Source of the DNA: an uncultured Rickettsiales bacterium
Lineage (GTDB): Bacteria; Myxococcota_A; UBA796; UBA9615; CAYRNR01
DNA: 64,000 nucleotides
Assembly: GCA_964639985.1 (NCBI GenBank)
Contig: CAZXHG010000012.1
Location: forward strand, 1,254-65,253
Direction: 5' to 3'
Shown: piece after piece, positions 2,599 through 43,177 of the stretch
How positions within the stretch are numbered: position 1 is the stretch's first letter
Layout of the letters: the number at the start of each line of letters is the position of its first letter
Made by a program: the position numbers and the translations under genes
The notes under the pieces: model-generated
Seen by the model: only the letters and a program-made list of their open reading frames with translations
Told to the model about the DNA's origin: nothing
Databases searched by the model: none

Positions 2599-2599
2599 C

Positions 2600-5623: not shown

Positions 5624-5643
5624 GCGATGGGAGGGACAGCACG

Positions 5644-8166: not shown

Positions 8167-8244
8167 GCTGTGCGGTTCGCGGCAGGTGAACAGGCGGGGG
8201 GCCGGGATCGGGCGGAGGTCCGCCGGGAGGAGGGGAGCACACGC

Positions 8245-12060: not shown

Positions 12061-12100
12061 CGGGAACCGGGTTCGCCCCGGGCCCTCCCACGCGGTGGCC

Positions 12101-14041
12101 CTACTCCCTCGTGTGTCCTTGCTCCTCCAGCCAGGCGGCGAGCCTGTCCAGGTAGTCGACACAGCCCCGTACCAGCGTGCGCTGCAGCGCGATCCGGCTC
12201 GCCGCGGTCGAGGCCTCGGGCTCGCCGCAACAGGCGCGAAGTGCATCGTGCCCCAGACGTGCGGCGTGGGGCTTGATCGCGCTGTGGGCCCACAGGTTGC
12301 GGATTCGGCGTAGAGCCGTACCGCAGAACGTCTCGCACAGCTCGTCCGCCTTTGCGACGGGCGCCTCGTCCCGTTCACGGCTGCCTCCGGGAGACTCTCC
12401 AGCGCCATGACCCGAGCTGCGGGTCCCCGCTTCGCCAGCCGTGGGCTCGAGCCAGCCGTGCTGCGCGAAGAACATCCGGGGGATGGCCTGCTGAAAGGTC
12501 CTGCCCGCGCGATCCTCGACCAGGGCGGCGTGCAGGCCGGAGACCACTGCGATGATGCCCTTGCGGTCGACCGCCGGGGAGGCGAGCACCTGGAACAGGC
12601 AATCCGGTCCCCCGGGGGGCAATCGGACCAGGGCTGACGAACCCTGTTGCCGTGTGAGATCGTCCACGCGAACCAGCGCATCCACCAGGCGGCGGGCGCG
12701 CCGGCGAACGGGCAGCCCCAGCAGGGACCATGAGAGCGCTGCCGCGAGTGCTGCGGCAATCACACCGGCCACCGGGTACACCACCGGTGAGGTCCATGTG
12801 GCGGCCACCGCCGCGATCACCATCCCCACACCCAGCAGCTGCGGCCATGGCCAGATGTGCATCACCGCCTCGAGCACGGATGCGGGTCGCGCAGAGGCGT
12901 AGATCTCGGGGAGCGAGCCTCTGCGTCGCGCCATCAGCGCCGGTGGCAAGGACGCCAAGACAGCCGCGACCACGATCAGGAGCAGCGACCAGGCTCCCGC
13001 CCGGCGGACGTAGGACCTGGCCTGCAGCTGGTTGAACGCGGCTGCCTGGACGAACACCCCGTAGGTGTCCCTCGCTGTACAGCCGTCCTCGACGCAGGTG
13101 AGTTGCCCCTCGGGCACGAACGGCAGCTGCCACACGTCGCTGGCCGCCCAGCGGCCGACCAGGCCGACGAACACGGTCCGTCCCCGGATATCCTCGATCA
13201 ACTTCTCGGGCTCGGCCAGCAGCACGTGGCTGTGGGGCAACACCCGGTGAGCGCGTCGAGGGTACCGGATCAGCAGCTCCGCACCGGTGGGGAGACCCGG
13301 GGGGGCGACGACCCGCCCCCATTCGGCGGTGGCCGGTGACCTCGTCTCCGCCAGCGAGAATGCCTGCAGGAAGAGGGAGGGTGCGGGCTGTCCGCCCAGC
13401 TCACCCAGCAGCGCCGTGGACGCCAGGAGGCCGGTTCGGCTGTCACGCCTCGCGTCCAGGATCGCCGCGTGGCTTCGCCCGGACTCGTAGAGCGCGTGCG
13501 GCGGCGCCCCCTGGTGCGTTCCGAGGACCACGGGCACGCCAGCGGCGGCAGCGCGATCGAGGGCTGCGATGAATTCGGTGGTCCGATCGGGGGCCGCGTC
13601 GGTGAAGTACATGTCGAAGGCAACGCACGCCGGTTCCGCGAGGACGAGCTGGTCGAGCAGGCGTGCGTGGAGCGCGCGCCAGGCGAGCGGGTCCTCGTCG
13701 AAGTCCGGGATGGGGATCGGACCCGCCGGCCCGGCCCGGACCGCCTGCGACGTCAGTACGCCCCTGTCCTCCTCGGACAGGGTGACGACCACGGCGCCGC
13801 CCAGGTCATCGATGCTCATGAACCGTTGCCGCGCAGCGTGGATCGAACTCTCCAGGGGGCGGGCAGCCACGGCTCCCGCGAGCGAGAGCGGAATGATCAG
13901 CAGGCCGAGCTTGACGTGGGGGTGCACGGTGCTGTCCCCTCCTGGGATCCAGTCGGTTTGAGAAGCCGTGGTGTCGAAGCACCGCGCATCACATGGCCAC
14001 CCCGATGCAGACGAACATCGCCAATACGCCGAACCAGACAA
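12101..14041 (-). CDS. CHASE2-like extracytoplasmic sensor membrane protein with short cytoplasmic C-terminal region
   Basis: N-terminal signal/TM HVKLGLLIIPLSLAGAVAA; a likelier start is the internal GTG near 13927. CHASE2-like features: VAFDMYF, TVFVGL, TCVEDGCTARDTYGVFVQAAAFNQL. Then 3-4 TM helices (WSLLLIVVAAVLASL, LLGVGMVIAAVAATW, VAGVIAAALAAALSW). Last gene of the long - strand array. Confidence 0.45.
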   Translation of the reverse strand: MSGSAYWRCSSASGWPCDARCFDTTASQTDWIPGGDSTVHPHVKLGLLIIPLSLAGAVAARPLESSIHAARQRFMSIDDLGGAVVVTLSEEDRGVLTSQAVRAGPAGPIPIPDFDEDPLAWRALHARLLDQLVLAEPACVAFDMYFTDAAPDRTTEFIAALDRAAAAGVPVVLGTHQGAPPHALYESGRSHAAILDARRDSRTGLLASTALLGELGGQPAPSLFLQAFSLAETRSPATAEWGRVVAPPGLPTGAELLIRYPRRAHRVLPHSHVLLAEPEKLIEDIRGRTVFVGLVGRWAASDVWQLPFVPEGQLTCVEDGCTARDTYGVFVQAAAFNQLQARSYVRRAGAWSLLLIVVAAVLASLPPALMARRRGSLPEIYASARPASVLEAVMHIWPWPQLLGVGMVIAAVAATWTSPVVYPVAGVIAAALAAALSWSLLGLPVRRRARRLVDALVRVDDLTRQQGSSALVRLPPGGPDCLFQVLASPAVDRKGIIAVVSGLHAALVEDRAGRTFQQAIPRMFFAQHGWLEPTAGEAGTRSSGHGAGESPGGSRERDEAPVAKADELCETFCGTALRRIRNLWAHSAIKPHAARLGHDALRACCGEPEASTAASRIALQRTLVRGCVDYLDRLAAWLEEQGHTRE

Positions 14042-14945
14042 GTGCCAGCCAGGCGGCAGCCGGGAGCAACTGGTTTTCGTGAAGGGCTGCCGCGCCGTCG
14101 GGCAGTGGCGCAGACGCGGCAGGCAGGTACGGTCTCAGCATCACGGATCCCATGGCCAGGTGCCTCACCCACCGGACCAGGACCGCCTCCACGAAGGCGA
14201 TCGCGATGCCCGCGGCGATCGACAGCACGAACACCAGCGTACTCGCGTGGTCCAGGATTTCCATGGGAGAGTGACCCTTCTCGAACAGCTCGTTCCAGCC
14301 CAGGATCCAGTCCGTCCACTCCAGCGCGGAATCGAGCACGCCGCCGCCGAGCATGGCGCCTGCACCCATGCCCAGGACGTCGCCCACCGCACCCAGGCCG
14401 CACAGCAGGACCGCGTATCCCACCACACCGATGCACCCGCAGCCCGTCCCCCCCGTGGCACAGCCCGCGCGCAGGTCGCCGGATTCCTCGGCCACGGCCA
14501 GCCCGCCCGCGATGCCCAGGGCCACGGCGACCACCGCGGGCAGGACGAATGACAACCAGATCACCACTTGGACGACGAAGGCCACCACCAGCACGACCAG
14601 CCACACGATCCAGCAGACCAGCGCCACCACCCACGAGGCCAGGTATCCGAGCACGAACAGGACGAACATCAAGGCTGCGGGAAGGAACACCACGAGCAGG
14701 GTGATCCCGGCCAGCTCGACATTGACGAGCAACTCGCCCCGGAACGTCTCCCTCGGTCTGATCGCAAGCCCGAGCACAGGCCCCACGGCCATGGGCAGCA
14801 GGATCACCGCCGTCCACCCGAGAAGCAGTGCGTCGAAACCGTCCAGGCTGAGAACGCACTCCCAGCCCATCCAGACCAGTCCCGTGACCACGACCACGGC
14901 GGTGATCAGGGCCAGCGTCCTCCGACGTGTCCAGGACCATTTCAC
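13989..14945 (-). CDS. Polytopic integral membrane protein, paralog A (about 8 TM helices), unknown function
   Basis: Highly hydrophobic 318 aa. Motif RPRETFRGELLVNVELAGITLL. C-terminal LRPYLPAASAPLPDGAAALHENQ. About 35% identical by eye to the 15270-16175 product. Confidence 0.55.
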   Translation of the reverse strand: MKWSWTRRRTLALITAVVVVTGLVWMGWECVLSLDGFDALLLGWTAVILLPMAVGPVLGLAIRPRETFRGELLVNVELAGITLLVVFLPAALMFVLFVLGYLASWVVALVCWIVWLVVLVVAFVVQVVIWLSFVLPAVVAVALGIAGGLAVAEESGDLRAGCATGGTGCGCIGVVGYAVLLCGLGAVGDVLGMGAGAMLGGGVLDSALEWTDWILGWNELFEKGHSPMEILDHASTLVFVLSIAAGIAIAFVEAVLVRWVRHLAMGSVMLRPYLPAASAPLPDGAAALHENQLLPAAAWLALVWFGVLAMFVCIGVAM

Positions 14946-14985
14946 GGTGTCGAGCAGACCTCCTCGGGCCGTCGCGCGAGCACGC

Positions 14986-15273
14986 TCATCCGCGTATGTG
15001 CAGCTCGACCGGCCTCACGCAGCGCGTGATCAGCAGCGCCGCGATCGCGATTGGATACAGCATCCAGTAGGCGCCCCAGAGCATCGCGAAGGCCCCGAAC
15101 GCGATGGGCAGTCCCCACCACGGGTGGCGCACGGCAAAGCGATCGATGCCGTGCTGGACCAGATGCACCTCGTAGTTGCCGCGGCGGAGAGCGAGCGAGA
15201 CGAGATCGAAGGACGTCTGCACGCCGAACCCGTCGATGATCGAACGATGGTCCTCTTGGTCGGATGCGCTCAT
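14986..15273 (-). CDS. Small membrane protein (~95 aa), translationally coupled to the upstream membrane protein
   Basis: Internal start MSASDQEDHRSIIDGF... of ORF 14986-15966. Its ATG overlaps the TGA of gene 15270-16175 (ATGA). C-terminal hydrophobic helices WWGLPIAFGAFAMLWGAYWMLYPIAIAALLI. Confidence 0.4.
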   Translation of the reverse strand: MSASDQEDHRSIIDGFGVQTSFDLVSLALRRGNYEVHLVQHGIDRFAVRHPWWGLPIAFGAFAMLWGAYWMLYPIAIAALLITRCVRPVELHIRG

Positions 15274-16175
15274 GCCTCTCCCCAGGTGGAAACGATGACC
15301 GTGGCCAGCGTGGCCGACCACACGAGCATCAGCCAGGCGGTCGCAGGAATGGACTGACGTTCGTCCAGCACGCTGACGCCATCGGGCAGCGGGGCGGATG
15401 CAGACGGCAGGAAGGGACGCAACCACAGCAACCGCATCATCGCGAGTCGCGCCCACCGCGACGACAGCGCCGCCGTGAAGGCGAGGGTCACGCCCAGTCC
15501 AGCGGTACACATCGCCGAGAAGATGGCGTGGTGGTTTGCCCTCGCGATGGTGCCCCTCATGAAATCGAACAGGAACCCCCACTCGGGTATCCAGCCCGTC
15601 CACTGGCGCGCGGCCACCACCACGTGTCCGTTGAAGGCATCCAGCCAGTGGCTGTCGAGGGAGGCCGTGACCCGGTGGGTGACAAGTGCGAGTAGCACAA
15701 CCCCGACGAGCGTGACCACGACGCCAATCCAGGGTTCCCCGGACCCATCCGATGCCAGGAACCCCGCCACGACGGAGCCGATGGCGGCCGCGTAGACCAG
15801 CAGCTGCAGCACCAGGGCGAGCAGCAGGACGATGATCCAGAACAGCCAGCAGGCAGCAACGGCGACGATCGAGCTGCCGTAGGTGAGCGCATAGACGACG
15901 AGGCCCAGCGCCCCTGGAGCGAAGATGGCCAGCAACGCCAGCTGCAGCAGCTCGAGGTTGACCCACGCCTCGCCGCGCACGGTCTCTCGGGGCCTCATGC
16001 TCAGCCCCATCAGCGCTCCGACGCCGGCGAGCGACACGACGATGCCGACGCCGATGCGGGGCGACATCATTCCCCCGCGGAGGTGATTCTCCAGGACGAG
16101 CCAGCCCATGCCCCCGCTCACGACGAGGATCGTCAGGATCGCCCAGTCGCGGTGGGAGGTGTGCCGGACGTTCAT
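15270..16175 (-). CDS. Polytopic integral membrane protein, paralog B
   Basis: 301 aa, about 8 TM helices. Motif RPRETVRGEAWVNLELLQLALL. C-terminal LRPFLPSASAPLPDGVSVLDERQ. Paralogous to 13989-14945. 4-nt overlap with upstream gene 16172-19105. Confidence 0.55.
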   Translation of the reverse strand: MNVRHTSHRDWAILTILVVSGGMGWLVLENHLRGGMMSPRIGVGIVVSLAGVGALMGLSMRPRETVRGEAWVNLELLQLALLAIFAPGALGLVVYALTYGSSIVAVAACWLFWIIVLLLALVLQLLVYAAAIGSVVAGFLASDGSGEPWIGVVVTLVGVVLLALVTHRVTASLDSHWLDAFNGHVVVAARQWTGWIPEWGFLFDFMRGTIARANHHAIFSAMCTAGLGVTLAFTAALSSRWARLAMMRLLWLRPFLPSASAPLPDGVSVLDERQSIPATAWLMLVWSATLATVIVSTWGEA

Positions 16176-19105
16176 CTCCAGTGCCTGTCGATCAATGCCC
16201 GAACCTCGCCCTTGCTCATGCGCTCGGTGGTGAAGCAGAGCAGCTCGAGCGGGGAGTCGATCTCCTGGCCGAACGGATCGTCGTCACCCAGCACCAGCGA
16301 ACCCAGCGATCGCGCAGCCCGGCCGAGGAGCGGTGGTTTCCTGAGACTCTCCCGGACCTCCCCGAGCGTCGTGCCTTCCCGGCGAACGCGGTGCAGAGCG
16401 AGCGCAGCCAGCCGCCTCAGCAGGTGATCTGCGTGCCTGCCGCGGGCCAGGCGGGCGAGCCAGGCCAGCTGATCGTAGTCGGGTGGGTGGTCGTACAGAT
16501 CCCGCCGGTTGATATGGTCGAGCTGGGCTCGCGGTGGGTAGTACCAGGCGCGTTGCAGGACGAGGAGCAACTGGGCGCCCGACAGGGAGTCCAGCGCACG
16601 TTGCTCCACAGCACACATGGATTCGTAGTCGTGTTCAGCGGCCCAGGCATCGGTCCTCGTGGCCAGGTTCCAGAGGAATCGCCATGCATTCCGATCCTGC
16701 AGCCCCTGCCTACGGATCGTGTCCTTCCAGTACTCTCGGACCTCTTCCGAGCCGACCATCCCCAGGATCAGCAGCTTCAGCGGCCCTGGCGGAGGCGTCA
16801 CGGGAGCATCGTCCGGCAGGAGCTCGAACACGGCTCGGAATCCTCCTTCCGAGTCAGCGTTGGCCAGCAGGACGCCGAGGTCGGGAGGGGAGGGCATCGC
16901 CCGGAACACCAGCGCGATCTGCGTCATCTCCTCGGCGGTGAGTGTGACCCTGGGCATCGGCCGACCTCGTAGCAGGGCGGACATCGCTCGGAAGATGTCG
17001 GGGAGCCCGGCCGTGGCGCGGCGCGAGGTTCCCAGCCACGCCTCGATCAGCTGAAGCGTCGCCCGCTCGCAGGATGCGGTCGGATGGGGTCCCGAACCAG
17101 AGCAACACTCGGCCAGCCGGCCAATGGTCGTCTCGTCCCGATCGCCAAGTCGCTGCAGGCACAGCTCGTTTCCCAGGGCTGCCAGGTCGCCGTTTTCGGC
17201 TCCGTCGCGCACGCCGAGCAGCAGCCACCGGATCGGCTGACCGAGCCGGGGTCCCAGGGCCGCGTCCACGCTCGCCTTCTGTCGTACGCCGAGCTCGCTC
17301 CATCCAGCCAGCAGTACCCGGGCCATGCCGGCGTCCATCTGTGGACTGCCGGCGTCAACGGCCTCAATCAGATTGCGTAGGACTCGCCTGAACCAGGCCT
17401 CCCTTGTGAGCGCCCGGGACGTCAGCTGCCTGAGGAGGAGCACGTCATGTCCAGCCCGACCGGCCAGGTCCGCCAGCACGAAGGCGCCGAGCGTGGAGCC
17501 GTCTCCGTCGCGCAGTGAGGCGATCAGGAAGTCGAGTTCGGGTGCCGAGCCTGTGCCGCCAGGCAATGCCTGGACGAGCGCGGCCCCGTCGGCGGCTTCC
17601 GGGGATCGCCCCTCGGAGAGGGTGAGGTACGCCCTGCCTGCGGGGGTTCCGCCGAGCGCCGAGAACAGACGAGTGCTGGTTCGTCCGTTCACGCGAGCGA
17701 CGCGTACCGCAGCCCAGAACAGCGTCCCGGCCGAGGCCTGGCGCCAGGCAGACAGCCAGGCCGCGTCGTCGGGATCGGGCAGGAACAGGTCCGCCCAGAT
17801 GTCGTGGGTCTCTCCCAGGGAGTGTCCTGCGGTCACGGCGGTATCGAGTCGCTGGCCTGCCTTGCGGGCCACGTGGTCCGGGAGGGGAAGGGTTCTCCAC
17901 AGGTTGGCTGCGTGCGGGACGCTGCCCTTGACCAGGCCGAGCAGGACGGCCAGCTCCTCGTGGTAGTTGTCGCGGTCTCGCGCGCAGGCCTCCAGCCAGG
18001 CGGGCTGCCAGGTGGTGTTCACCAGCTCAGGGAGGAAATCGCGGCCGCGGTCCTCGATGGCGTGGAGGATCGCGACGAGTGCCTCGACCTTCAGCACATC
18101 GAAGTCGAGGGCTGGTCGCTGATCGGTCGTGCGTGACAGCCATGCCTCGAGGTCCTGGAGCTGGGCCGACTCGCCGAGCACACCGCTGACGAGCCGGGCC
18201 GCCTCCTGCCACGACGCCTCGATGGGGATGGCGTCGTACGCCGCGTGCAACGGCAGGGCGGACGCCACGGCTTCGGTCAGCTGTCTGGGAGTCGAGCAGT
18301 CCCTGGCGACCTGCTCGAGCCATGCCACATACCGCCTGCCGGGCGTCAGGTCGATGTCATCGTCGCCGCGCCGCTCGCCTGCGATGACACGGACGCCGTC
18401 CATGGCCCGCATCCCGTTGGCGATGGCAACGGAGCCGTCCATCTCGATGAGCCCCGTTCCCACGGTCACGCGCCAGGCCATGGCGCGTGGCAAGGCGCAG
18501 AGGCACAGGCTGGCGAGATCCAGGAACTCCGCGTGTTCGCGCTTCCAGTCCTGCACGCTGAGCCCGTGGCCCGACATGAGCACTTCGAGCACGTCTCCGG
18601 CTTCAGTCAGCCAGTCCGGGGGCAGGTCGCCGTCCAGGAACATGTCGTCGTCGGTCGTGACAGCTGGAAGGTCCTTCTCGATCCCGGTGGTCGGTTCGGC
18701 ACGCAGGACCTGGTCGAGTTGGGAGGCCGAGGCGGCACTCCACGCCGACGCGGATACCACGAGGTAGTGGGCCTGCGTGAAGATCCTCCCCGGCAATCCC
18801 CTTCCCCCTTCGGACAGCCCACGAACCCGGCAGGCGACGACCCACGACGCCCCCTCGACCTCGAGGGGCTTCACGATGATGCCGCCACCGCGTTCGAACC
18901 AGGGGTGGTCCTGCCAGATGAACTGCTCGGATGCGCCGATGCCCACGACATCGGGACGGCAGTGGTCCTCCAGGGAACGAGCGAAGCCCACAGAGAATCC
19001 CGTGACGTCGTGCTCGGATCCCTTCACGATCGGACCATCGACGGTCTGGACGATCTTGCCGTATCGACACTGTTCCCAGATCACACGATCACTCCCTCGA
19101 AACAA
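16172..19105 (-). CDS. Large soluble hypothetical protein (977 aa), Ala/Leu-rich helical
   Basis: Long ORF with strong GC3 bias and no recognisable catalytic motif. Start lies just after the stop of GTPase gene 19110-19946. Confidence 0.55.
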   Translation of the reverse strand: MFRGSDRVIWEQCRYGKIVQTVDGPIVKGSEHDVTGFSVGFARSLEDHCRPDVVGIGASEQFIWQDHPWFERGGGIIVKPLEVEGASWVVACRVRGLSEGGRGLPGRIFTQAHYLVVSASAWSAASASQLDQVLRAEPTTGIEKDLPAVTTDDDMFLDGDLPPDWLTEAGDVLEVLMSGHGLSVQDWKREHAEFLDLASLCLCALPRAMAWRVTVGTGLIEMDGSVAIANGMRAMDGVRVIAGERRGDDDIDLTPGRRYVAWLEQVARDCSTPRQLTEAVASALPLHAAYDAIPIEASWQEAARLVSGVLGESAQLQDLEAWLSRTTDQRPALDFDVLKVEALVAILHAIEDRGRDFLPELVNTTWQPAWLEACARDRDNYHEELAVLLGLVKGSVPHAANLWRTLPLPDHVARKAGQRLDTAVTAGHSLGETHDIWADLFLPDPDDAAWLSAWRQASAGTLFWAAVRVARVNGRTSTRLFSALGGTPAGRAYLTLSEGRSPEAADGAALVQALPGGTGSAPELDFLIASLRDGDGSTLGAFVLADLAGRAGHDVLLLRQLTSRALTREAWFRRVLRNLIEAVDAGSPQMDAGMARVLLAGWSELGVRQKASVDAALGPRLGQPIRWLLLGVRDGAENGDLAALGNELCLQRLGDRDETTIGRLAECCSGSGPHPTASCERATLQLIEAWLGTSRRATAGLPDIFRAMSALLRGRPMPRVTLTAEEMTQIALVFRAMPSPPDLGVLLANADSEGGFRAVFELLPDDAPVTPPPGPLKLLILGMVGSEEVREYWKDTIRRQGLQDRNAWRFLWNLATRTDAWAAEHDYESMCAVEQRALDSLSGAQLLLVLQRAWYYPPRAQLDHINRRDLYDHPPDYDQLAWLARLARGRHADHLLRRLAALALHRVRREGTTLGEVRESLRKPPLLGRAARSLGSLVLGDDDPFGQEIDSPLELLCFTTERMSKGEVRALIDRHWR

Positions 19106-19109
19106 GCGA

Positions 19110-19946
19110 TCATCGGTTTAGACGCGAACGCCAGCATACGCCTCGGGCCAGGAACTCGATGGGCTCGTAGACCCGGTAGGGCCACCAATCCCGGTAGGCA
19201 TTCTCACCATCGAGGTGCCAGCCCTCCGGCCCCTGGATGGCCGCTCTCGCGCCCGTTCTCCGATCGAACCCGAACGCCGAGACCAGGAAGTAGCCGTCAC
19301 CCCCGGGCGCGACCGCATGGCGGACGACCTCGACGAAGGACTGCCCCAGCGCCTCGCGCACGGTCGATGCCGGCTTCAGCTGTTCCACCTTGCCGACGAC
19401 GTCCCGTGTGCCGGGGGCCACGTGCAGCTCGGCCATGGTCAGCGTGATCGCCATCCTGAGGAAGGCAGGGCGACCGCCCTGGATGCCCTTGCGCTCCCTG
19501 ACGAGATCGAGCAGCTCCGCGAAGCGGTCGATCAGGTTCGGGGGCCGCAGCTCCTGGTCTCCGGGAACCACGAAGAGCAAGGCGTCAGCCTGGGCCAGAT
19601 CGTCGAGCACGTCGTCGGAGAATCGCTGCTCCGGCGAGGGCACGCAGCCGCCTCCGGGCACGTCGACCATGGTCAGCTGGATGGATTCCTTGCCGAGTCC
19701 GAAGAACACGGAGCCAGGCAGGTCCGCGACGAACGAGTAGCGGTTCACCGCCGATGTGGCCACGATCAGCCTGCCCATCAGCACGTCGATCGCCCGGTCG
19801 TAGAGCCGGAACGCTGGCTCGTTGTCGGGTTCGGGCCGCACCTGCAGCGGCCTCGACGTCCTGCCCATGGCGTCGGACGCCAGCAGCAGGCTCGCGAGGT
19901 ACACGGTCTTGCCCGACCGTGTCGGGCCAGCGACGGCGACTCGCAT
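19110..19946 (-). CDS. P-loop GTPase (TRAFAC-like), first of a tandem pair
   Basis: Probable start MRVAVAGPTRSGKT (Walker A/G1 GPTRSGKT). G3-like MVDVPGGG. Start codon lies 2 nt after the stop of the preceding GTPase gene. Confidence 0.6.
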   Translation of the reverse strand: MRVAVAGPTRSGKTVYLASLLLASDAMGRTSRPLQVRPEPDNEPAFRLYDRAIDVLMGRLIVATSAVNRYSFVADLPGSVFFGLGKESIQLTMVDVPGGGCVPSPEQRFSDDVLDDLAQADALLFVVPGDQELRPPNLIDRFAELLDLVRERKGIQGGRPAFLRMAITLTMAELHVAPGTRDVVGKVEQLKPASTVREALGQSFVEVVRHAVAPGGDGYFLVSAFGFDRRTGARAAIQGPEGWHLDGENAYRDWWPYRVYEPIEFLARGVCWRSRLNR

Positions 19947-19948
19947 CG

Positions 19949-20889
19949 TCAGAGGTCCTTCGCCGCGATGACGGTGAAGCCCCTGCGACACACCAGCCCG
20001 GTCGCGACGTAGACGAACGGATCCAGCACCTGGAACGGTCTCCAGGCGTCGATCACGTCCTTGTAGTCACACGCCTCCTCCTGGACCACCAGCATCGAGT
20101 CCGTGGTCGGGTTGTAGTTGGGCAGACCGCTCTGATCCGGCAGGAAGCCGTACGCCGAGACGAAGCCGAGGGCGACCTGTGTTTCGGGCTGCAGCGAGTT
20201 GCGAAGCCTCGCCAGCGTTGGCTGGGCGAGCGTCTTCCTGAGGAACGCGACCGGGTCGGTGTCCCACACGTGCTCCAGCGCGCTGCACTTGCCCTGGGTC
20301 TCCTTCTGCGCCCACTTGTCGGCCTTGGTGAAGCAGATGGCGACGCGGTCGTATGGCAGCCGGTCGTACCCCACCTCGTAGATGAGCTTCGGCAGCTGGG
20401 TGAAGAAGGTCATCGCGTCGGGATCGTCAGCGCTGATGCAGAGGATCAGTCCATCGCCGTCATGCATCTCCGCGACGACCCGCTTCCTGAACTCCTCGAT
20501 CTGCTTGTGATCGACGTCCGCGGCGTTGGAGTCGGGGAACATCACGCCGCCGGGGCCGTCCCACATGACGAACGTCGTCTCGAGCTCCCTCTTGACCTTG
20601 GTGAAGAAACCACTCTCGACCCAGGAGACCGCCAGCTTGAAGGAGTACTTCTGCATACCCTGGGTCGCGCCCATGGGCAGTACGCCATTCCTCAGGGTGT
20701 TCTTCACCGTCGAGAACAGCTCCACCAGTTCGTCGGAGCGGGGGTACACGACCACGTTCTGGGGGTGGAACCTCCTGGGCTGGGTATCGCCGGCGAGCTC
20801 CAGTGTCGACAGCAGGCCGGTCTTCCCGACCTTGGTCGGACCGATGACGATGTAGCGCTTGGAGGACTCGATCTTCTCGACCTTCATGA
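19949..20889 (-). CDS. P-loop GTPase (TRAFAC class), second of the tandem pair
   Basis: Start MKVEKIESSKRYIVIGPTKVGKTG (G1). G3 WDGPGG. G4-like ICFTKADK (N/TKxD). ATG overlaps the TGA of the upstream radical-SAM-like gene (ATGA). Confidence 0.6.
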
Positions 20890-21600
20890 GTTCCCTCTTG
20901 TGATCTGTTCTTCGGTAGCGGGTGGGAGTCGCATCGCCACCATGGTTTCGACTCGCTTCGCAGCGTCTCTCGTCTGCAGTCCCGAGATCGACACGGCACC
21001 GGTAGGGTCGACCCGGATGGAGAAACCCTTGCGTTGCCGCTCCCAGGCCTCGTCCAGGGTGGCCTGGTCGTACCGGCTGCTCAGGCAGTGGATACGCTGG
21101 TTGGTGGAGCCTCGCCAGCGCGCCGTGTCGGCGTAGCTCCCCTGCTGGAACGGACCATCGACCAGCAGGTCGGTCGAGGCGAGCCAGCGCGCCGTGCCAT
21201 GGTCCGTCCTGCGGTTCAGCTGCTCGAGGGTGTATCCCGTGTAGACCATGCACGAGAGTCCCAGGGCCCGAGCGCCCTGGAGGAGTGTGGCCAGGGCCTC
21301 CGGCTGTTCGGACGGTTCCCCGCCGAGCACGGTGATGCCCTCGACCGGTCTGCCCGATTCGCGACACACGAGCCGTAGTCGGTCGAGGATGTCCGTGACG
21401 CGGATCTCGGACCCACCCGCCGGATCCAGCAGCCTCGGTGTGAGGCAGACCTCGGTGCACCTCGACGTGCAACCCTGGAACCACAGCGGGACCCTCCAGC
21501 CCGGCCCGTTGTGCAGGGTTGGCCGCAGGCTGTCGAGTCCATGTCCCAGGCGGACCGAATCGTCGGGGTCGTGAGCCTGATCGTGTGCCGCGTCCGTCAT
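20884..21600 (-). CDS. Radical-SAM-like 4Fe-4S single-cluster protein (NrdG/QueE activase-like) with atypical cysteine spacing
   Basis: VPLWFQGCTSRCTEVC resembles the NrdG/QueE cluster-binding loop but is spaced CX3CX3C. Size (238 aa) and the ITVLGGEP glycine-rich SAM-binding-like segment fit this family. Confidence 0.5.
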   Translation of the reverse strand: MTDAAHDQAHDPDDSVRLGHGLDSLRPTLHNGPGWRVPLWFQGCTSRCTEVCLTPRLLDPAGGSEIRVTDILDRLRLVCRESGRPVEGITVLGGEPSEQPEALATLLQGARALGLSCMVYTGYTLEQLNRRTDHGTARWLASTDLLVDGPFQQGSYADTARWRGSTNQRIHCLSSRYDQATLDEAWERQRKGFSIRVDPTGAVSISGLQTRDAAKRVETMVAMRLPPATEEQITRGNS

Positions 21601-21616: not shown

Positions 21617-23548
21617 CTAGGGTGTGAGCCCCACCTTTGGAGGCTGGTCTAGATCGATGGGCGGCCGCGCGTCGGTCCGGCTGAGCAGGGCCTCGCAGTC
21701 CTCCTCGAACGTCTCCTGCTCGTCGGCGAACTTCGCCACCAGGTTCCGGGTGTTGTCGTCCTGCGGGTTCCGCCGCATCCACCTCCGGACGTAGGCCTCG
21801 TCGATCTCCAGGGTGTCGTTGTAGAGCAGGTCGTCTTCCAGCTTGCCGAAGAACACCTTGACCATTCGCCGCGCTGACTGACCGGCCATCAGATCCGCCA
21901 AGCGGTCTTCGTCGAGTCCGCCCACCAGCTGCACGTCGCCCCCCAGCTTTCGAAGGCAGCCGTGGATGATCGCCAGCCTGCCGCGGCGCGAGGGCAGGCC
22001 GATGTAGAGGTGGGAGCGGAACCTCTCCTTGATCGCCGCGTCGATCCGTTCAGGGTCGTTGGTGTCGGCGATGTAGATGATGTTGGTGTCGATGCGTCCC
22101 GAGGGAGGCTCGAAGATGGTCTTGAACGCGTTGACCAGCCCCGCCATGTTCTCGTTGCGCTTGGAGAGGTACTCGTCGGCCTCGTTGAAGTAGACGATGA
22201 GCTGCTCCTTCTCCTTCCATCCCCGGTACAGGGCATCGAGCTTGTCCAGGCTGACATCTTGCAACCCCCCCGTGCTCAGGTCAGCGGCCTCGACCACCTC
22301 GATGGAGATCCGGCCCTCCAGCGCCGTCATCAGGGATTGCGCCAGCGTGGTCTTGCCGGTCCCCGGGGGTCCGTACACGAGCGCGGAGCATCGCTTGAAC
22401 GAGTTCTCGTAGGTCTTCAGGGTCTCCAGTCGGGCCTTCTCCGTCTCGCCGAACAGGCGTTGCTTCCGCTCGTGGATACGATCCATCACCTCCTCGCGAC
22501 GGAGCATCATGTGCCTGACCCGATGGATGTAATTCCAGACCTGTGACGGGGCGACGTACTCCTCGAGCGGGAAGCCCCTCATCTCGTCGCTCTCCACCTG
22601 TCCGGTTCGCCGCAGCGAGGGTGGGATCTCGCGCATGGCGGCGTACAGGGTGGAGTCGCTGGCCGATTTGGCGAACAGGGGGCCGTGGGGCTCCTGGACG
22701 GACAGCGGCTTGAGAAGCACCGGGATGCAGTGCTCGAGTCTCAGGTCTGGAAGCTGCTCCACCAGGTCCGGGGGGAGCCGGCGATCCTCCAGCCCCGCGC
22801 ACACGAACCCCCCCGTGGCCAGCCTCTCGACCGTTTCCTTCTCGCGCGTGAGGATGACGACATCGACCGGAGTGCTCTCGCACAACCCGGGGAGCTTGGA
22901 GAAGCGGTCCTCGAGCATGCCTCGTTCCCTGTGCTCGGGGATCTCCTGCTCCAGCCGGAACCTGTCCGGCATCAGGAACGCGTCGTCCACCAGCACGAGC
23001 GTGCGGCTCGTGGCCCCGTGAGGGATGGGATCGTGGTGCGAGAGGTTCCACTCCAGCCCGCAGCGCTCCTCCACGACCGCGAGCAGTTCCCTCAGCCGGT
23101 CCGGGAGCGTGTTGCCGTCGCGTGGCGGCGTCCAGATGATGCGGTCCGGGGTGCTGCGGATCCCCACGTCGCTCATCAGGCTGCCGAGGTCGAGGTCGTG
23201 CTCACGTCGATCCGCCGCGCCGGAGCGAGCCGTCGAATCATCGCGGCCCGCGGTCCCGTCCTCCTTCCCGCGGAAACGCCAGATCCCGGTCCAGGAGCGC
23301 AGCGCCGTCCGGGTGGCGATCGGGATGTCCGGCAGGTGGTTTCCACCGGTCGTGGCGACGACGATCTCGGTGTACGGGCAGGGCGCCAGGAAGGTCAGCA
23401 CGCACTCAAGCGGCGTCCTGGCCGGGGGACGGCGACAGCCCGCGTAGTGGAGGCCCTCCGCGCCGACGACGACCGCGACCCGTCCGCCCTCTCCCTCGCC
23501 GATGGAGCGCAGCTTGGTGAGACTCTGCCGGGTGTGCGCGTCGCTCAC
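21617..23548 (-). CDS. AAA+ ATPase (classical AAA family) with ~350-aa N-terminal domain
   Basis: Walker A VYGPPGTGKTTLAQSL. Walker B LIVYFNEADE. Classical AAA second-region-like IKERFRSHLYIGLPS. Confidence 0.7.
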   Translation of the reverse strand: MSDAHTRQSLTKLRSIGEGEGGRVAVVVGAEGLHYAGCRRPPARTPLECVLTFLAPCPYTEIVVATTGGNHLPDIPIATRTALRSWTGIWRFRGKEDGTAGRDDSTARSGAADRREHDLDLGSLMSDVGIRSTPDRIIWTPPRDGNTLPDRLRELLAVVEERCGLEWNLSHHDPIPHGATSRTLVLVDDAFLMPDRFRLEQEIPEHRERGMLEDRFSKLPGLCESTPVDVVILTREKETVERLATGGFVCAGLEDRRLPPDLVEQLPDLRLEHCIPVLLKPLSVQEPHGPLFAKSASDSTLYAAMREIPPSLRRTGQVESDEMRGFPLEEYVAPSQVWNYIHRVRHMMLRREEVMDRIHERKQRLFGETEKARLETLKTYENSFKRCSALVYGPPGTGKTTLAQSLMTALEGRISIEVVEAADLSTGGLQDVSLDKLDALYRGWKEKEQLIVYFNEADEYLSKRNENMAGLVNAFKTIFEPPSGRIDTNIIYIADTNDPERIDAAIKERFRSHLYIGLPSRRGRLAIIHGCLRKLGGDVQLVGGLDEDRLADLMAGQSARRMVKVFFGKLEDDLLYNDTLEIDEAYVRRWMRRNPQDDNTRNLVAKFADEQETFEEDCEALLSRTDARPPIDLDQPPKVGLTP

Positions 23549-25200
23549 AGGTCGTCCTCCAGCTTATCCAGCCCCTTGGTCACTCCTCGCCAGGCGTCCG
23601 CGTCGACCTGGTTGGCGGCTTCGGCGGCCGTGGTCACGCACGCCTCGGACCGGTTCTGGGTGTCCACCTGCTGCTCGGTGACCTCACCCTCGGCCTGCAT
23701 CGCCCGGACGACCGCCTGAGCGCGGCTGCCGCAGGTCCGGTTGGAGGCGTGACCGTAGCCGTCCACCGTGTAGGAGCCATCGATGTCGAGGTGGACGTCG
23801 ACTCCCACGCCATCGAAGTTGCACTCGACGATCTTGGCGGACTTGGGATCATGAGGGGTTGCGTAGCGCTGTTCCACGCCGGTCAGGGGGCCGTAGATGT
23901 CGGCGAGGCGCTTGACGACCGTTGGCGCCACCTCGGCCCGATCCCGTGCTTGCCTGCGGACGATGGGCGTGGTGGCGTTGATGACCAGCGCCTGCTCCTC
24001 GAGCTTGTCGAGCTGCCGCTCGTGCCGGTCGGCCTGCACATCCAGCCGGCCGTAGCGGTCGTAGCTCTCGGCGGCCTCGCGCTCGATCCGCGCGGCGATC
24101 CGCCGGGCCTGGCCGGCCTCGGCCTCGAAGTATTCCTGGATGGCCTCATCCTCCAGGGAGCCCGCGACCTCCTGTGATCGCTGCATGAGCCGCTCCCGCA
24201 TGTCCACCAGCTCCGCCTCTCGCCGCATGGCTCGATAGGTCAGGGAGCGGGCCCCCGTCATGGCGCCGTGGGCCGCTGCCAGGGCTGCGGCCGTGTTGTT
24301 GGTCTCCAGCAGCTCGAAGACCTCCAGCTGCTTCAGCTCCGCCTGGTTCCGCTCTCCATCGAGCCGCAGGCGCTGGCAGTGGGCGTCATCGTGCTGCTGC
24401 GTCTCCTCCTGCGCCATGGTGACCAGCACTCGCGCTCGTGAAGCCTCGTCCTGCTCCTTGGCGAGGCGCTCTGCCCGGTCCTTCTCCAGCTCTGCCTCCA
24501 CGCGGTCGATCTCGGCCTGGAGCCGTCGCTCGGTCTCCTCTCTGCGACGTTCGGCCTCCTCGAGCCCCTCGGCCATCTCGTGGCGGACGTCGACGAACTC
24601 CCGGCGCACGGCCTCGACGTGCTGCCGGTGCGCGACATCCAGCGCGTCGATCTCCGCGGCCTGCTGTTGCAGCTCGCCGTGCACGGCGCGGAACTCCTGC
24701 TCGGTCCAGCGGGCCACGCCCTCGATCTCGCTGCCGAGTGCCTGGATGTCGGCTCCCTGGCGCTCGATCTCGTCCGTGACCTCGCCGATGGCCTGGCGGG
24801 TGGATTCCCCGAGGGCGTCGAGATCCCCGGCCAGCTGGATCTGGTTCGCTGCCAGGCCATGCAGCTCACCCTGCTGTCGCGTGAGCTCGCTGCGGGTCTC
24901 CTGGTAGCGCCGGTTCGCCTGCTCCGTGGCCCGTTCCTGGGCTCGCGCCAGGCGGCTCTGCGTATCCGAGATGGCTCGAACGTCGTTCTGGACGCCCTGG
25001 TTGACGCGGATCTGTCTCTGCAGATCCCCGCGCGTCCGGCCGAGCTCCTCCATGCGATTCCGCAGCTGGTTGCCCAGCGAGGTCGCTCTGCGGCGATACT
25101 GCTCGGCCTCGGCAGCGGCCTCCTCCTCCGCCAGCCGCCGCCTTGCCGCATCCCGCTCGGCGATGGAGTGGTAGATACATCCGTTGACCGTGTAGCTCAT
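23545..25200 (-). CDS. Coiled-coil protein (~550 aa) with a C-terminal globular region
   Basis: Probable start MSYTVNGCIYHS at 25200, with AGGAAAGGAA SD; the ORF opens at 25254. Long heptad-like Q/E/R/L-rich stretch. 4-nt overlap with the AAA gene. Confidence 0.5.
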   Translation of the reverse strand: MSYTVNGCIYHSIAERDAARRRLAEEEAAAEAEQYRRRATSLGNQLRNRMEELGRTRGDLQRQIRVNQGVQNDVRAISDTQSRLARAQERATEQANRRYQETRSELTRQQGELHGLAANQIQLAGDLDALGESTRQAIGEVTDEIERQGADIQALGSEIEGVARWTEQEFRAVHGELQQQAAEIDALDVAHRQHVEAVRREFVDVRHEMAEGLEEAERRREETERRLQAEIDRVEAELEKDRAERLAKEQDEASRARVLVTMAQEETQQHDDAHCQRLRLDGERNQAELKQLEVFELLETNNTAAALAAAHGAMTGARSLTYRAMRREAELVDMRERLMQRSQEVAGSLEDEAIQEYFEAEAGQARRIAARIEREAAESYDRYGRLDVQADRHERQLDKLEEQALVINATTPIVRRQARDRAEVAPTVVKRLADIYGPLTGVEQRYATPHDPKSAKIVECNFDGVGVDVHLDIDGSYTVDGYGHASNRTCGSRAQAVVRAMQAEGEVTEQQVDTQNRSEACVTTAAEAANQVDADAWRGVTKGLDKLEDDL

Positions 25201-25273
25201 CTCGATTCCTTTCCTGACCGGCCAGGGGGGCGAGCGATGGGCCGCTCCGGGCAAGTCCGCCCCAGCATGGGTA

Positions 25274-25734
25274 TCAATCCTCGCTCGAGGACGGGGCGGC
25301 CGCGCGGCTGAGGCTGTCGAGGAGGTCCGTCCAGCCGACGAGGACAGTCACTCGCGAGTCGGTTCGCTCGCACTCGTCGTGGAGTTGCTCCCGGCGTCTG
25401 GCGGCATCGTCGACCTCTGCGGTGTACGCGGCGAGCTCTCCCTCGACGTCCTCGGCCAGCGTCGGGCCGATGATGCGGTCCGTCCACTGCCCGACGAGGT
25501 CGACGAGTCTGCGGTCACATCCCGTGGGTAGGGGCACATCGCCCAGCGTCATCTCCCGGCGGATCACCTCGGCGTTGACTCGTGCCGTACCATCGGGGAG
25601 CTGGCCGTCCATACCCTCGGTGGATTCGAAGACCTCACGCTCGAGCCGCAGCAGCGCGTCCTCGACATCCTCCCCGGACTGGAAACGACTCCTCAGCTCC
25701 TCGAATCGCGCCCGCAGCTTGTCAATCGTCATGA
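25274..25734 (-). CDS. Small acidic/coiled-coil hypothetical protein (~153 aa)
   Basis: Internal start MTIDKLRARFEELRSRFQSG of ORF 25274-26311; the N-terminal extension is arginine-rich artefact. Overlaps the stop of the upstream gene by ~13 nt. Confidence 0.4.
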
Positions 25735-26462
25735 CGCACCTCGGCCAGGACGTCCTTGGGGATGCTCCATGTCTCCTCCAGGTGTGCGTCGGCGAGGCGA
25801 GGCTCCACGAAATCGGACAGGAGGCGGCGGGCGTGCACATCCGGCAGGTCGGCCAGGGCCTGCATGACCGCCGGATCGATGCGGTGCCAGTCCTCAAGGC
25901 GGCTCCGGGTCTCCCTCTCCTCACGCTCCAGGCTCTGCTTGCGCTCCTCGAGCGCTTCCTCCTCGGCCAGGACATCCTGGATCTCGGCCGACCGTAGGGC
26001 AGCCGCTTGAACTCGGGAGGCGACTCGCGCACGGTACTCGCCCAGGACCGGGGCGAGCTGCGTGATGCGCGCCTCCACCATGGCGGCAGGTTGTCTGTCG
26101 ATGTCCCTCCATTCCAGGAACCGCCCGGCCTCCTCGACGATCTCGGCATCCAGCGCGGCCTGACAGGACGCCAATCGGTGCTCGATCCCATCCGCGACAG
26201 CCTGCGTCCGCGCGCGTATGGTCTGCTCCGCAGCCTGCTCGGTCTCGGCGATCGCCTCCACGAGTGATGCCCTGTCGATCCTCGTTTGCTGCAGCTCGCG
26301 CTGGAGAGCATCCCTGCGAGATTCCATCTCGTCGGGCCGTTGCAGCTCGCTCAGCCTCGCTCGCAGCTGGCTGACCTCGGCTTCGAGACGCTGTTCCACC
26401 TCCCGCGTCCGGCCTCCGAGCAGTGACGCGACCCGCTCCACCCAGGCTTCGGCCTCGCCCAT
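25722..26462 (-). CDS. Coiled-coil hypothetical protein (~246 aa)
   Basis: Start MGEAEAWVERV. Its ATG overlaps the TGA of the upstream gene (TGATG). E/R/A/L-rich heptads. Confidence 0.4.
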   Translation of the reverse strand: MGEAEAWVERVASLLGGRTREVEQRLEAEVSQLRARLSELQRPDEMESRRDALQRELQQTRIDRASLVEAIAETEQAAEQTIRARTQAVADGIEHRLASCQAALDAEIVEEAGRFLEWRDIDRQPAAMVEARITQLAPVLGEYRARVASRVQAAALRSAEIQDVLAEEEALEERKQSLEREERETRSRLEDWHRIDPAVMQALADLPDVHARRLLSDFVEPRLADAHLEETWSIPKDVLAEVRHDD

Positions 26463-26911
26463 CAGGTCCCCCCTTCCCCCCTCAACCGCCGCTGGATGGC
26501 CCCCAGCTTCGCGGTCAGGTCCGCGACCTCCAGCTTCGCCCTGTCCACGGAAGTCCTGAGCGCGTCGACCTCGGCCTCGATCCGCTTGGCTCGCTCCGAC
26601 GCGGCCAGGGCTCGCTCGATGCCCGCCTCGAGCTCGCGCCGCTCCCCGCGGAGCTGCGAGATCCGGGGCGTCTCCACGTGCGCCTCCGGTGCGCTGTCGC
26701 CTACTCCAGCCAGCGATATCAGCGCGCTGAACTCCCGGCTCTCCGAGGAGCTCATGAGGAACCCCTGCATCCACTTGACCGCCGACTTGTGCAGGTCGAC
26801 GTCGTCCGGGCCGGCTGCCGCGATCGACTCGCGCATCTGCGTCAGGCAGGCATCTGCACCCTCCTGCCGGTAGACCTCGACCCAGGCCGCAGCCATCTCC
26901 CTGTGTGTCAT
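26462..26911 (-). CDS. Coiled-coil hypothetical protein (~149 aa)
   Basis: Start MTHREMAAAWVEVYRQEG, directly after the stop of the upstream gene. C-terminal ELEAGIERALAASERAKRIEAEVDALRTSVDRAKLEVADLTAKL coiled coil. Confidence 0.4.
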   Translation of the reverse strand: MTHREMAAAWVEVYRQEGADACLTQMRESIAAAGPDDVDLHKSAVKWMQGFLMSSSESREFSALISLAGVGDSAPEAHVETPRISQLRGERRELEAGIERALAASERAKRIEAEVDALRTSVDRAKLEVADLTAKLGAIQRRLRGEGGT

Positions 26912-26913
26912 GG

Positions 26914-28536: not shown

Positions 28537-28541
28537 GAGCC

Positions 28542-31130: not shown

Positions 31131-31137
31131 CGCCCCC

Positions 31138-31947
31138 TCACCCCTTCTCGTTTCCCGGCCGGCACACACCCAGCTCCCCCAGGAGGTACGCCAGCGGAGC
31201 GGCCACGCCCTGGGGCCGCACCCCGAACGGGAGTGCCTGACCGAACTCGCTGAGGATGATGGCGGGATCGCCGGTGGACCCGCTGTATCCATAGGCGGTC
31301 GACGGCCAGATCCTGTCGTCGAACCACTCCTTGAGTTCATCTTCCCGGCGCAGGCACCACTCCTCCCCGTGCCACCAATCCTGGGTCCGCGACCACGCCG
31401 GGTGGTTCTGGGGCAGGTGACGCTCGCACTTGGTGAAGGTCAGCGCTCGAGGCTTGGTACCCCAGAACTGGTGGCTGTTACGGATCGCGTCGATCTGCCG
31501 GGCGACCTCCCGGGCTCTCCATTCGAGCAGGAACAGGAACGCGTCGGCCTCCTCGAGCTGTTCCTGGACCCAGGGTTGCTGGATCTCCTGGGTGATCTGG
31601 CCGCGGACGTCGCGGATACGGACGATGCCGCCGTCACTCAGCGTGAGATCGAGATCGATGTGCTCCTCGCTCGTGGGTCGGACCCACCGCTCGGTGTTGA
31701 GCCGTTGCCAGTGCTGGGCGACGACGCGGACCGTGGCGCCACCGCACCGCGACCAGTCGATCCCCGGGAGCTTCACCTTCTGGTCGGTGTGGTACAGCGC
31801 GGTCGCGAGCAGGGACGTCTTGCCCACCTGGGTGTCCCCCCAGAGCAGGATCGTCCGTACTTCGCCGTCTGGGTCTCGAGCCGCTGCCGCGGCTTTTCGT
31901 GTCGACTTGGTTCTTGCCCTGGTCACAGCTCTATCCCGGCTCCCCAC
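31138..31947 (-). CDS. Ras/Roc-like small GTPase
   Basis: G1 LLWGDTQVGKTSLL. G3 DVRGQ (canonical DxxGQ of Ras-like GTPases). G4-like FTKCE. 269 aa. Confidence 0.65.
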   Translation of the reverse strand: MGSRDRAVTRARTKSTRKAAAAARDPDGEVRTILLWGDTQVGKTSLLATALYHTDQKVKLPGIDWSRCGGATVRVVAQHWQRLNTERWVRPTSEEHIDLDLTLSDGGIVRIRDVRGQITQEIQQPWVQEQLEEADAFLFLLEWRAREVARQIDAIRNSHQFWGTKPRALTFTKCERHLPQNHPAWSRTQDWWHGEEWCLRREDELKEWFDDRIWPSTAYGYSGSTGDPAIILSEFGQALPFGVRPQGVAAPLAYLLGELGVCRPGNEKG

Positions 31948-38341: not shown

Positions 38342-38609
38342 CGGGATTTCTCGGACAGGAGGATTCAGATCTCTTCCAGGTCGCCCTAGCGACGAGGGTT
38401 GCGCGCAGCATACATCGGGCTGGTGCGGGTTGCATCCAGCGCTGATCGACCCCCTCGAATCCCGCTCTCCCCCCGAGGAGTCGACGTCTGTTCTCCGGTA
38501 TACTGCCGCGGGCGAGGTGCGTGGGCGAGGGGCAGCCGTGGCCACGGTTGGCCGGATGCCGGAGCCTCAACCCCAGTGCCTCTCGTCAGGCGGGCGGATA
38601 CTACCGACG

Positions 38610-43174: not shown

Positions 43175-43177
43175 CCG

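Follow-up and report, generated by a model that had tools for sequence, protein, structure and literature searches.

The closest described relatives of the system reported here are the DO-GTPase conflict systems of bacteria. They are defined by a glutamate in the Walker B motif and by a GAP1 partner, transmembrane (TM) components and pore-forming SLATT effectors have been reported in them, and cyanobacteria are reported to lack them almost entirely (Kaur, Burroughs, Iyer, Aravind 2020, eLife, PMC7159879). A comparable array lies on the minus strand of a stretch of 64,000 nucleotides, here called the window, from contig CAZXHG010000012.1 of an uncultured Rickettsiales bacterium. As in the DO-GTPase systems, two adjacent paralogous TRAFAC-type GTPases (G1 and G2) are followed by a large constant protein (Big) and by TM-containing components. 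The latter are a polytopic membrane protein of a new family and a 95-amino acid (aa) partner encoded by a small open reading frame (ORF); in this genome the family has two members, TMA and TMB, and the gene chain ends with a CHASE2 receptor. We propose, tentatively and with something less than even confidence, that the TM protein and its small partner are the obligatory membrane platform and output of an undescribed conflict-type system run by a GTPase switch.

The array departs from the DO-GTPase systems in several of its elements. G1 and G2 resemble each other (25% identity, E=9e-16) and carry the TRAFAC-type motifs GxxxxGKT (P-loop), DxPGG and, in G1, TKAD. The Walker B motif of the DO-GTPases is DxxGE, whereas it reads DxPGG, with glycine in place of the glutamate, in all the aligned G1 and G2 proteins (window and locus L013); in cyanobacterial relatives it is mostly D[YA][PAS]GE. 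The GTPases of the system stay below the Pfam gathering cutoffs: G2 of the window scores 15.3 and 12.7 bits against the DO-GTPase1 and DO-GTPase2 models (PF19975 and PF19993), for which the cutoff is 27. Sub-threshold DO-GTPase2 matches are present in 13 of 17 members of the G1/G2 family (best E 4.4e-5), and a distant cyanobacterial homologue passes the DO-GTPase1 model at 36.1 bits. G1, G2 and that cyanobacterial GTPase have in common a P-loop, the motif S-x-[FY]-G and, towards the C terminus, W-x-P...P..[FW]L..G. Big gave no match to GAP1-N1/N2, GAP1-M or GAP1-C at E<=1 in eight orthologues, by single-sequence hmmscan of limited sensitivity, and hhalign detects no likeness between its profile and those of the cyanobacterial large proteins. 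Zinc-ribbon, GASH and FNIII domains were found in none of the scanned operon proteins or their scanned relatives, a scan that covered part of the genes at 25274-31340. Nor do the described systems include the TM family, the small ORF or an extension made of radical-SAM, AAA+ and coiled-coil proteins. Since the Walker B glutamate is replaced by glycine, and Big has neither a GAP1 match nor profile likeness to the cyanobacterial large proteins, the system is, as judged from its sequences, a sister of the DO-GTPase systems and not one of their members.

A different and distantly related array is found in the cyanobacterial loci L016, L017, L019 and L021 (about 7400-14400 in each). In L021 it comprises a Fer4_12 radical-SAM protein, three GTPases, one of which passes the DO-GTPase1 model, and a domain-less protein, with a vWA protein nearby. 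The domain-less protein measures 730-900 aa across L016, L017 and L021.

A preliminary description of the window had suggested that the membrane genes are a sub-module of the GTPase array, and comparison with other genomes bears this out. Loci were gathered from members of the TM family and, independently, from G2 in genome and metagenome collections, and were scored with hidden Markov models (HMMs) for TM, small, Big, G1 and G2. Fourteen independent loci have enough flanking sequence: the window, L001, L006, L009, L010/L014, L011, L012/L030, L013/L031, L026, L027, L028/L029, L032, L039 and L040. The TM gene adjoins Big and/or G2 in 14 of 14, and the small ORF comes directly after the TM gene wherever the contig runs past the latter. 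The gene order is either G1-G2-Big-TM-small or, in L011 and L013, G1-G2-TM-small-Big. The association is reciprocal, G2 homologues of at least 38% identity all carrying the TM-small module where the contig reaches far enough, and no independent occurrence of membrane genes and GTPases was observed among the loci with sufficient flank. A distant clade of GTPases (21-29% identity, mostly cyanobacterial) has no TM-family member.

The core of the system is X-G1-G2-Big-TM-small, and the system exists in a short form of about six genes and a long form of about 15. The short forms, L001, L028, L030 and L032, consist of X, G1, G2, Big, TM and small. By BLASTP, the first gene product of the window system (X1191) matches a 452-aa protein of L001 (gene at 3828-5186, E=2.6e-18) and a 383-aa protein of L030 (gene at 746-1897, E=1.5e-6); on these sequence similarities X is the sixth core component. 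The long form is found in the window, L013 and L014, and in part in L006 and L026. It adds an NrdG-like radical-SAM protein, an AAA+ protein, a protein of about 470-570 aa, three small proteins and two large ones, and its genes are colinear in the window, an Oligoflexales metagenome-assembled genome (MAG) and Rhodospirillum sp. A1_3_36. In the short forms no recognisable enzymatic effector is present. Hence, the TM protein is there the only candidate output apart from Big, for which no Pfam match was found in eight members and no sequence match in the PDB; a word-indexed search with the Big profile, nearly blind for these proteins, returned only Big itself.

The TM family is rare. An exhaustive profile HMM search recovered 33 clusters among 1.84 billion cluster representatives, with lengths of 250-335 aa except for two fragments, and a word-indexed search with TMB, nearly blind here as well, returned TMB and one relative. 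TMA, TMB, the small ORF and Big belong to no family in Pfam, NCBIfam, PADLOC or PHROGs, the TM protein has no fold match in the PDB, and no similarity to a transporter fold or family was found for it. In an alignment of 31 sequences R65, S104, R258, R261, P275 and A279 are invariant, W25, E29, G70, E71, R271, P280 and D283 are nearly so, and Q126 is conserved in 81% of the members. The conserved residues define four motifs: WLxxExxLRG inside TM1, RPRxSxxGE after TM2, RxxRxxLM after the penultimate TM segment, and LRPYLPxAxAPxPD before the last one.

The preliminary description counted eight TM segments. Hydropathy does give about eight hydrophobic segments, but an AlphaFold2 (AF2) model (pLDDT 88, with blocks above 90) fits seven crossings better. 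In the model residues 68-150 form one unbroken helical element; the stretch 79-150 has no dip in hydropathy, and aromatic belts (Y97 and W112/W115) surround the invariant S104. The stretch fits a two-crossing hairpin, with seven TM segments overall; the predicted number is seven to eight. An isolated beta-bridge, R65-L281, joins loops 62-67 and 274-289 in the model, so both signature loops touch and lie at the same side of the membrane. They are rich in Lys/Arg (2.6 and 5.4 per sequence), an excess that makes the cytoplasm the likely side. The extracytoplasmic loops are short or poorly conserved, and the variable loop 151-170 is disordered in the model.

The small ORF is a real gene, since conserved homologues follow the TM gene: they are placed directly 3' of it in 12 other loci, and the homologue of L001 shares 51.6% identity over 62 aligned residues (E=1e-22). 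The shared motif N[YF]ExHL[IVM]QxG....HPW precedes a hydrophobic segment of 30-45 residues with a conserved LW..YW and no conserved acidic residue. The protein would consist of a cytoplasmic N-terminal helix followed by a hydrophobic hairpin or TM segment.

In the window the system extends from about 35667 to 12101, some 23.5 kb (Table 1), with an ABC transporter at one side and a convergent TPR/papain operon at the other. The G+C content of the window is about 0.67 and many mechanical ORFs are shadows of real genes; the gene chain was therefore set by G+C at third codon positions (GC3), 0.82-0.87 in the frames retained, and by independent Joint Genome Institute (JGI) calls on identical metagenome contigs. 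The boundaries of the genes at 25274-31340 are approximate, with overlapping high-GC shadow ORFs; this set comprises three small coiled-coil proteins, one of about 530 aa and one of about 600-930 aa. A mechanical ORF of 511 aa at 19949-21484 (minus strand) is not a gene: it merges a shadow frame over the radical-SAM gene with the real 312-aa G1. The same gene order appears in contigs from three separate JGI metagenomes, which rules out an assembly artefact.

Table 1. Genes of the GTPase-TM system in the window (positions of the window; strand in the third column).
Feature	Position	Strand	Description
X1191, first gene of the system	32092..35667	(-)	1191 aa; N-terminal ~420 aa homologous to the gene before G1 in short forms
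Five conserved long-form genes	25274..31340	(-)	Colinear phmmer matches to L013, L014
Coiled-coil-type protein	23545..25254	(-)	569 aa; long-form component; orthologues in L013 (E=1e-84), L014
Classic-clade AAA+ ATPase	21617..23548	(-)	643 aa; long-form component; Pfam AAA E=7.9e-18; orthologues in L013, L014
NrdG-like radical-SAM (Fer4_12)	20884..21600	(-)	CX3CX3C cluster motif; long-form component; Pfam Fer4_12 E=3.8e-26
G1	19949..20887	(-)	312-aa P-loop GTPase paralogue: GPxxxGKT, DxPGG, TKAD; JGI gene call
G2	19110..19946	(-)	278-aa P-loop GTPase paralogue: GPTxSGKT, DxPGG, degenerate NKxD
Big	16172..19105	(-)	977-aa soluble core protein without known domain; homologues in 13 other loci
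TMA	15270..16175	(-)	301 aa, polytopic; first of the two TM-family copies in this genome; family HMM E=1e-87; ATGA overlaps at both ends
Small ORF	14986..15273	(-)	95-aa membrane partner; GC3 0.84; homologues in 12 other loci
TMB	13989..14945	(-)	318 aa; second TM-family copy, this genome only; HMM E=2.8e-83; AF2 pLDDT 88
CHASE2 receptor	12101..13927	(-)	608 aa; Pfam CHASE2 57.7 bits

Coupling of the membrane block to the gene for the 977-aa protein, already noted from the letters, takes the form of an ATGA at 16172-16175 shared by the TGA stop of Big and the ATG start of TMA. The small ORF likewise begins, as had been seen, in an ATGA shared with the TGA stop of TMA, and its GC3 is like that of its neighbours. 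TMB starts 40 nt past the small ORF and the CHASE2 gene 61 nt beyond TMB, each at a GTG with GGAGG upstream, and a convergent TPR gene ends 40 nt from the CHASE2 stop. No promoter-like or terminator-like site was found in the region, the gap between TMB and the CHASE2 gene included. The JGI call of 318 aa for TMB differs from one public annotation, an NCBI cluster member of 293 aa; the longer form is favoured, as its residues 10-32 line up with TM1 throughout the family, W25 and E29 included.

That TMA and TMB are paralogues, as the preliminary description held, is confirmed by a full-length BLASTP alignment (33% identity, E=7e-30). As spurious alignments may arise between hydrophobic proteins, shuffled sequences were used as controls: TMA and TMB score 434 by the Smith-Waterman method and shuffled sequences 60+/-10 (z=37), and z is still 22 when blocks of 15 residues are shuffled and the local hydrophobicity profile is kept. 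All family-invariant and near-invariant residues are present in both proteins, so neither of them has decayed. A recent tandem duplication, on the other hand, was considered and rejected: in the 31-sequence alignment TMA and TMB are 34% identical, and several orthologues from other lineages reach 32-33% to TMB. Neighbour-joining places TMB beside the one TM protein of L001 in 217 of 300 bootstraps (72%) and recovers a clade of TMA, TMB and L001 in 154 of 300. The neighbours are hence paralogous without being recent tandem copies, and from these comparisons the second copy would be old, or gained from a related system, perhaps along with the CHASE2 gene. TMA sits in the ancestral slot, after Big and before the small ORF, and is the counterpart of the single copy elsewhere. 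The 13 other loci have one TM gene each, and the pair is therefore not a feature of the system at large. A Cys-rich variable loop is common to TMB (residues ~156-172; window 14430-14480) and the TM protein of L001, with sequences AGCATGGTGCGC and AGCGACGC, respectively; it does not occur in TMA and is disordered in the AF2 model. Depending on the side of the membrane, this loop could be a metal or disulphide site.

The last gene is, by its domain content, a genuine CHASE2 receptor, in line with the early reading of a CHASE2-like extracytoplasmic sensor. The match to Pfam CHASE2 (PF05226) is well above the cutoff of 26.3 bits (E=1.8e-15) and covers model positions 33-254 of 257; a mechanical ORF of 646 aa was replaced by the 608-aa call, which has the GTG and GGAGG and is also that of JGI. 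By hydropathy only, hydrophobic segments are placed at residues 4-25, 309-334 and 364-407, and the CHASE2 domain would be periplasmic, between the N-terminal TM segment and a C-terminal TM block. This is the arrangement of CHASE2 receptors (Zhulin et al. 2003, as cited in PMC8195603), and the EACC2-caspases are an earlier example of bacterial conflict proteins in which CHASE2 serves as a variable sensor (PMC8195603). The window protein differs from them in its output: instead of a cyclase, kinase, GGDEF/EAL or caspase domain it has an orphan tail of about 200 residues after the last TM segment, too long for the short cytoplasmic tail of the preliminary description. No Pfam or NCBIfam domain and no known signalling output domain was found in this 204-aa tail, and a word-indexed search, which missed even the tail's own cluster, found no homologues. 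The tail consists of one HEAT/ARM-like repeat, a linker of low complexity and, at the C terminus, a helical domain of about 85 aa. The HEAT/ARM-like repeat resembles a designed armadillo protein, but the repeats of the latter inflate this similarity. Within the helical domain lies RNLWAH (Rx4H, of the Rx4-6H type) at residues 543-548, a motif that an Arg-rich sequence of 200 aa would contain by chance an estimated 4% of the time. The only profile echo of the tail, a weak one, is DUF4145 over the motif (E=0.13), and a single-sequence AF2 model had an unusable pLDDT of 47. DUF4145 is a HEPN family (PMC3710099), and a HEPN-like RNase output of the tail may be taken as a lead only. No CHASE2 homologue is detectable by phmmer in the 13 other loci; the gene is an accessory peculiar to this genome, and not the general signal receiver of the system.

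Of the proteins added in the long form, the radical-SAM protein matches the NCBIfam NrdG model below its cutoff, and QGCxxxCTxxC is present in five of five orthologues (the window gene; L006 567-1250; L013 8388-9086; L014 8238-8885; L026 180-875). The canonical radical-SAM motif is CX3CX2C, and distant cyanobacterial relatives beside DO-GTPase-like genes keep QGCPFRCPGC. No glycyl-radical motif occurs in any protein of the system, which leaves Big or the TM protein unsupported as glycyl-radical substrate of the NrdG-like enzyme. The AAA+ protein has CdvC/CDC48-like NCBIfam matches below cutoff, and the 569-aa protein and the three small proteins have only weak matches of coiled-coil type. An ESCRT-III/Vps4-like reading of the coiled-coil and AAA+ genes was tried and not retained, the matches being generic coiled-coil ones and a sub-threshold CdvC. 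The anti-phage defence models of PADLOC-DB 2.0 gave no match to X1191, the radical-SAM protein, G1, G2, Big, TMA, TMB or the small ORF; the matches obtained were generic ones to AAA+ (IetA-like) and to coiled-coil models. Literature searches for a system with this gene set returned none, only the study of Kaur et al. 2020.

The hosts are phylogenetically scattered, and include a Rhodospirillum sp., an Oligoflexales MAG and a MAG labelled Enterobacterales. G2 homologues were absent from plasmid and phage collections, and a TMB homologue from the plasmid collection, the one searched with TMB. Several neighbours of the module were recorded: a Cas6 gene near TM-small in L040 (5045-6010), a phage-integrase fragment (11250-11765) and an AEP-TOTE/ResIII helicase (12700-15279) in L001, and a 1275-aa FtsK/SpoIIIE protein in L028 (9403-13230). 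The integrase, Cas6 and FtsK/SpoIIIE neighbours are weak evidence of a mobile or defence-island setting.

Taking into account that: (i) the linkage is strict in 14 of 14 loci across two gene orders; (ii) the genes are coupled through ATGA overlaps and the TM family occurs nowhere else; (iii) the conserved residues are concentrated in two Lys/Arg-rich loops joined by a beta-bridge in the AF2 model; (iv) Big is the only other candidate output in the short forms; and (v) the GTPases are remote relatives of the DO-GTPases, the hosts are scattered, and integrase, Cas6 and FtsK/SpoIIIE genes occur as neighbours, we propose a switch model in which docking, switching, membrane action and the role in defence or conflict are all steps that we infer. 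In the model, the loops RPRxSxxGE and RxxR-x9-RPYLPxAxAPxPD would fold into one Arg/Pro-rich cytoplasmic patch, to which the soluble complex of Big, G1 and G2 would dock. Binding and hydrolysis of GTP by the G1/G2 pair would switch the complex, and the TM bundle with its small partner would act on the membrane, for example by ion leak or loss of integrity. E29 in TM1 and the deeper S104 and Q126 would be the polar residues of the membrane-acting part. Such an action would match that of TM effectors in other NTPase-regulated conflict systems. The platform of this genome would be a heteromer of two paralogues, TMA with the small ORF product and TMB, probably with an added extracytoplasmic sensor; the co-transcribed CHASE2 receptor would contribute a lineage-specific extracytoplasmic input or a second output.

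Some observations weigh against this model. No core gene has a PADLOC model and there are no plasmid or phage copies; what suggests a defence role is analogy together with a weak genomic context. For a pore, TM segments so nearly devoid of polar residues would be unusual, and the cytoplasmic placement of the conserved patch is a prediction, as is the topology of seven or eight TM segments. Moreover, effectors are usually the variable part of conflict systems. The TM protein is constant, so that a core, sensor or anchor role fits at least as well. The TM-small pair would then be a membrane receptor or anchor only, tethering the Big/GTPase complex and reporting what happens at the envelope (phage injection or membrane stress, for instance), and the output would be left to soluble parts: Big, the product of the radical-SAM enzyme or AAA+-driven remodelling. 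This explanation, which we rate as rather unlikely, is near the signal-receiving component of the preliminary description. It agrees with the constancy of TM and small in all loci beside variable accessory genes, as seen with sensor or coordinator parts of NTPase conflict systems, with the resemblance of the conserved TM loops to protein-docking motifs, with the non-pore-like hydrophobicity of the helices, and with the addition of a bona fide CHASE2 extracytoplasmic sensor beside the module in this genome. However, it leaves the short forms without a recognisable effector except the membrane protein and the domain-less Big, and the short or poorly conserved extracytoplasmic loops and the disordered 151-170 offer no obvious ligand-binding surface. 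Nothing points to the trans-envelope component that had also been envisaged: no outer-membrane or periplasm-spanning component was found.

A bolder reading of the pair is unlikely too: TM-small would be the gated ion path or pore output of an undescribed immune or conflict machine run by a heterodimeric GTPase switch and a sensor of about 950 aa, to which the long form would add the CX3CX3C radical-SAM, AAA+ and coiled-coil proteins, while the second TM paralogue and the CHASE2 protein, with a possibly HEPN-like RNase tail, would make of the present locus a surface-sensing variant with two outputs. We consider improbable a machine outside conflict altogether, namely an operon for membrane-associated biosynthesis, transport or remodelling, with a substrate modified by the radical-SAM enzyme, remodelling carried out by the Vps4/CdvC-like AAA+ and the coiled-coil proteins, and the TM protein as transporter or assembly site. 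The NrdG-like radical-SAM protein, the classic-clade AAA+ with its CdvC-like match and the several coiled-coil proteins of the long forms would suit such an operon, as would the lack of PADLOC matches and of plasmid or phage copies. Yet the short form keeps TM-small without radical-SAM, AAA+ or coiled-coil genes, so the module is independent of them; the TM protein resembles no transporter fold or family; and the sparse, patchy spread across phyla, with integrase and Cas6 neighbours, is atypical of housekeeping machinery. At the other end of the locus, the CHASE2 gene, and perhaps TMB too, might be a functionally independent neighbour placed by coincidence at the end of the operon, which seems somewhat unlikely to us. 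The absence of a CHASE2 homologue in 13 of 13 other loci, the 61-nt gap without overlap and the tail without detectable relatives speak for independence. Yet the gene is on the same strand, no promoter-like or terminator-like site separates it from TMB, it is wedged between TMB and a convergent gene ending 40 nt away, and the arrangement is kept in all contigs of this population; the protein has no classical signalling output domain and hence needs a partner. TMB keeps every family-invariant residue, so TMB at least is part of the system.

The proposed platform and output pair may also be compared with membrane pairs of known function. Stator pairs such as MotA/MotB, ExbB/ExbD and ZorA/ZorB offer an analogy only: the acidic residue (E29) is located on the large protein of the window and not on the small partner, and the pair has neither a peptidoglycan-binding domain nor sequence similarity to them. 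Neither a conserved Asp in the TM segment of the small partner nor fold similarity of the large subunit, the marks of a MotA/ExbB-type pair, was found. With the TM effectors of abortive infection (SLATT, CBASS 2TM/4TM) the window protein shares its position as a membrane protein at the 3' end of an NTPase-regulated operon, and one marginal PADLOC match to a "4TM effector" (E=0.074). It differs from them in being much larger, with seven or eight TM segments, in being constant and not exchangeable, and in having no significant similarity.

Other genes of the window were also recorded. A convergent operon of four genes for large proteins (13-12060, plus strand) abuts the system and encodes an 861-aa protein with a SHOCT tail, a domain-less protein of 1007 aa, an 840-aa papain-family C1 peptidase and a TPR protein of 1296 aa; it may be another conflict-type module. 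The gene at 38399-43174 (plus strand) encodes a protein of 1591 aa in which a carbamoyltransferase (N- and C-terminal domains) is fused to a Ser/Thr kinase domain; it lies in a region (40000-46000) with a G+C content of 0.57-0.61 against about 0.67. It is followed by a ParA/MinD-like ATPase, and two radical-SAM genes and an AdoMet decarboxylase-like gene are found on the opposite strand.

If the model is correct, a new membrane family and its small partner, with no database model or solved fold, would constitute the membrane end, the same in every locus, of a rare system that is scattered horizontally, is sister to the DO-GTPase conflict systems and lacks their hallmarks. The question addressed is how paired bacterial GTPases are coupled to the membrane. 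For direct testing, L028 and L032 offer a compact version of five to six genes, and Rhodospirillum sp. A1_3_36 the long form. In the present genome, the duplicated subunit and the CHASE2 gene would represent a natural experiment in the addition of an extracytoplasmic input to such a system.

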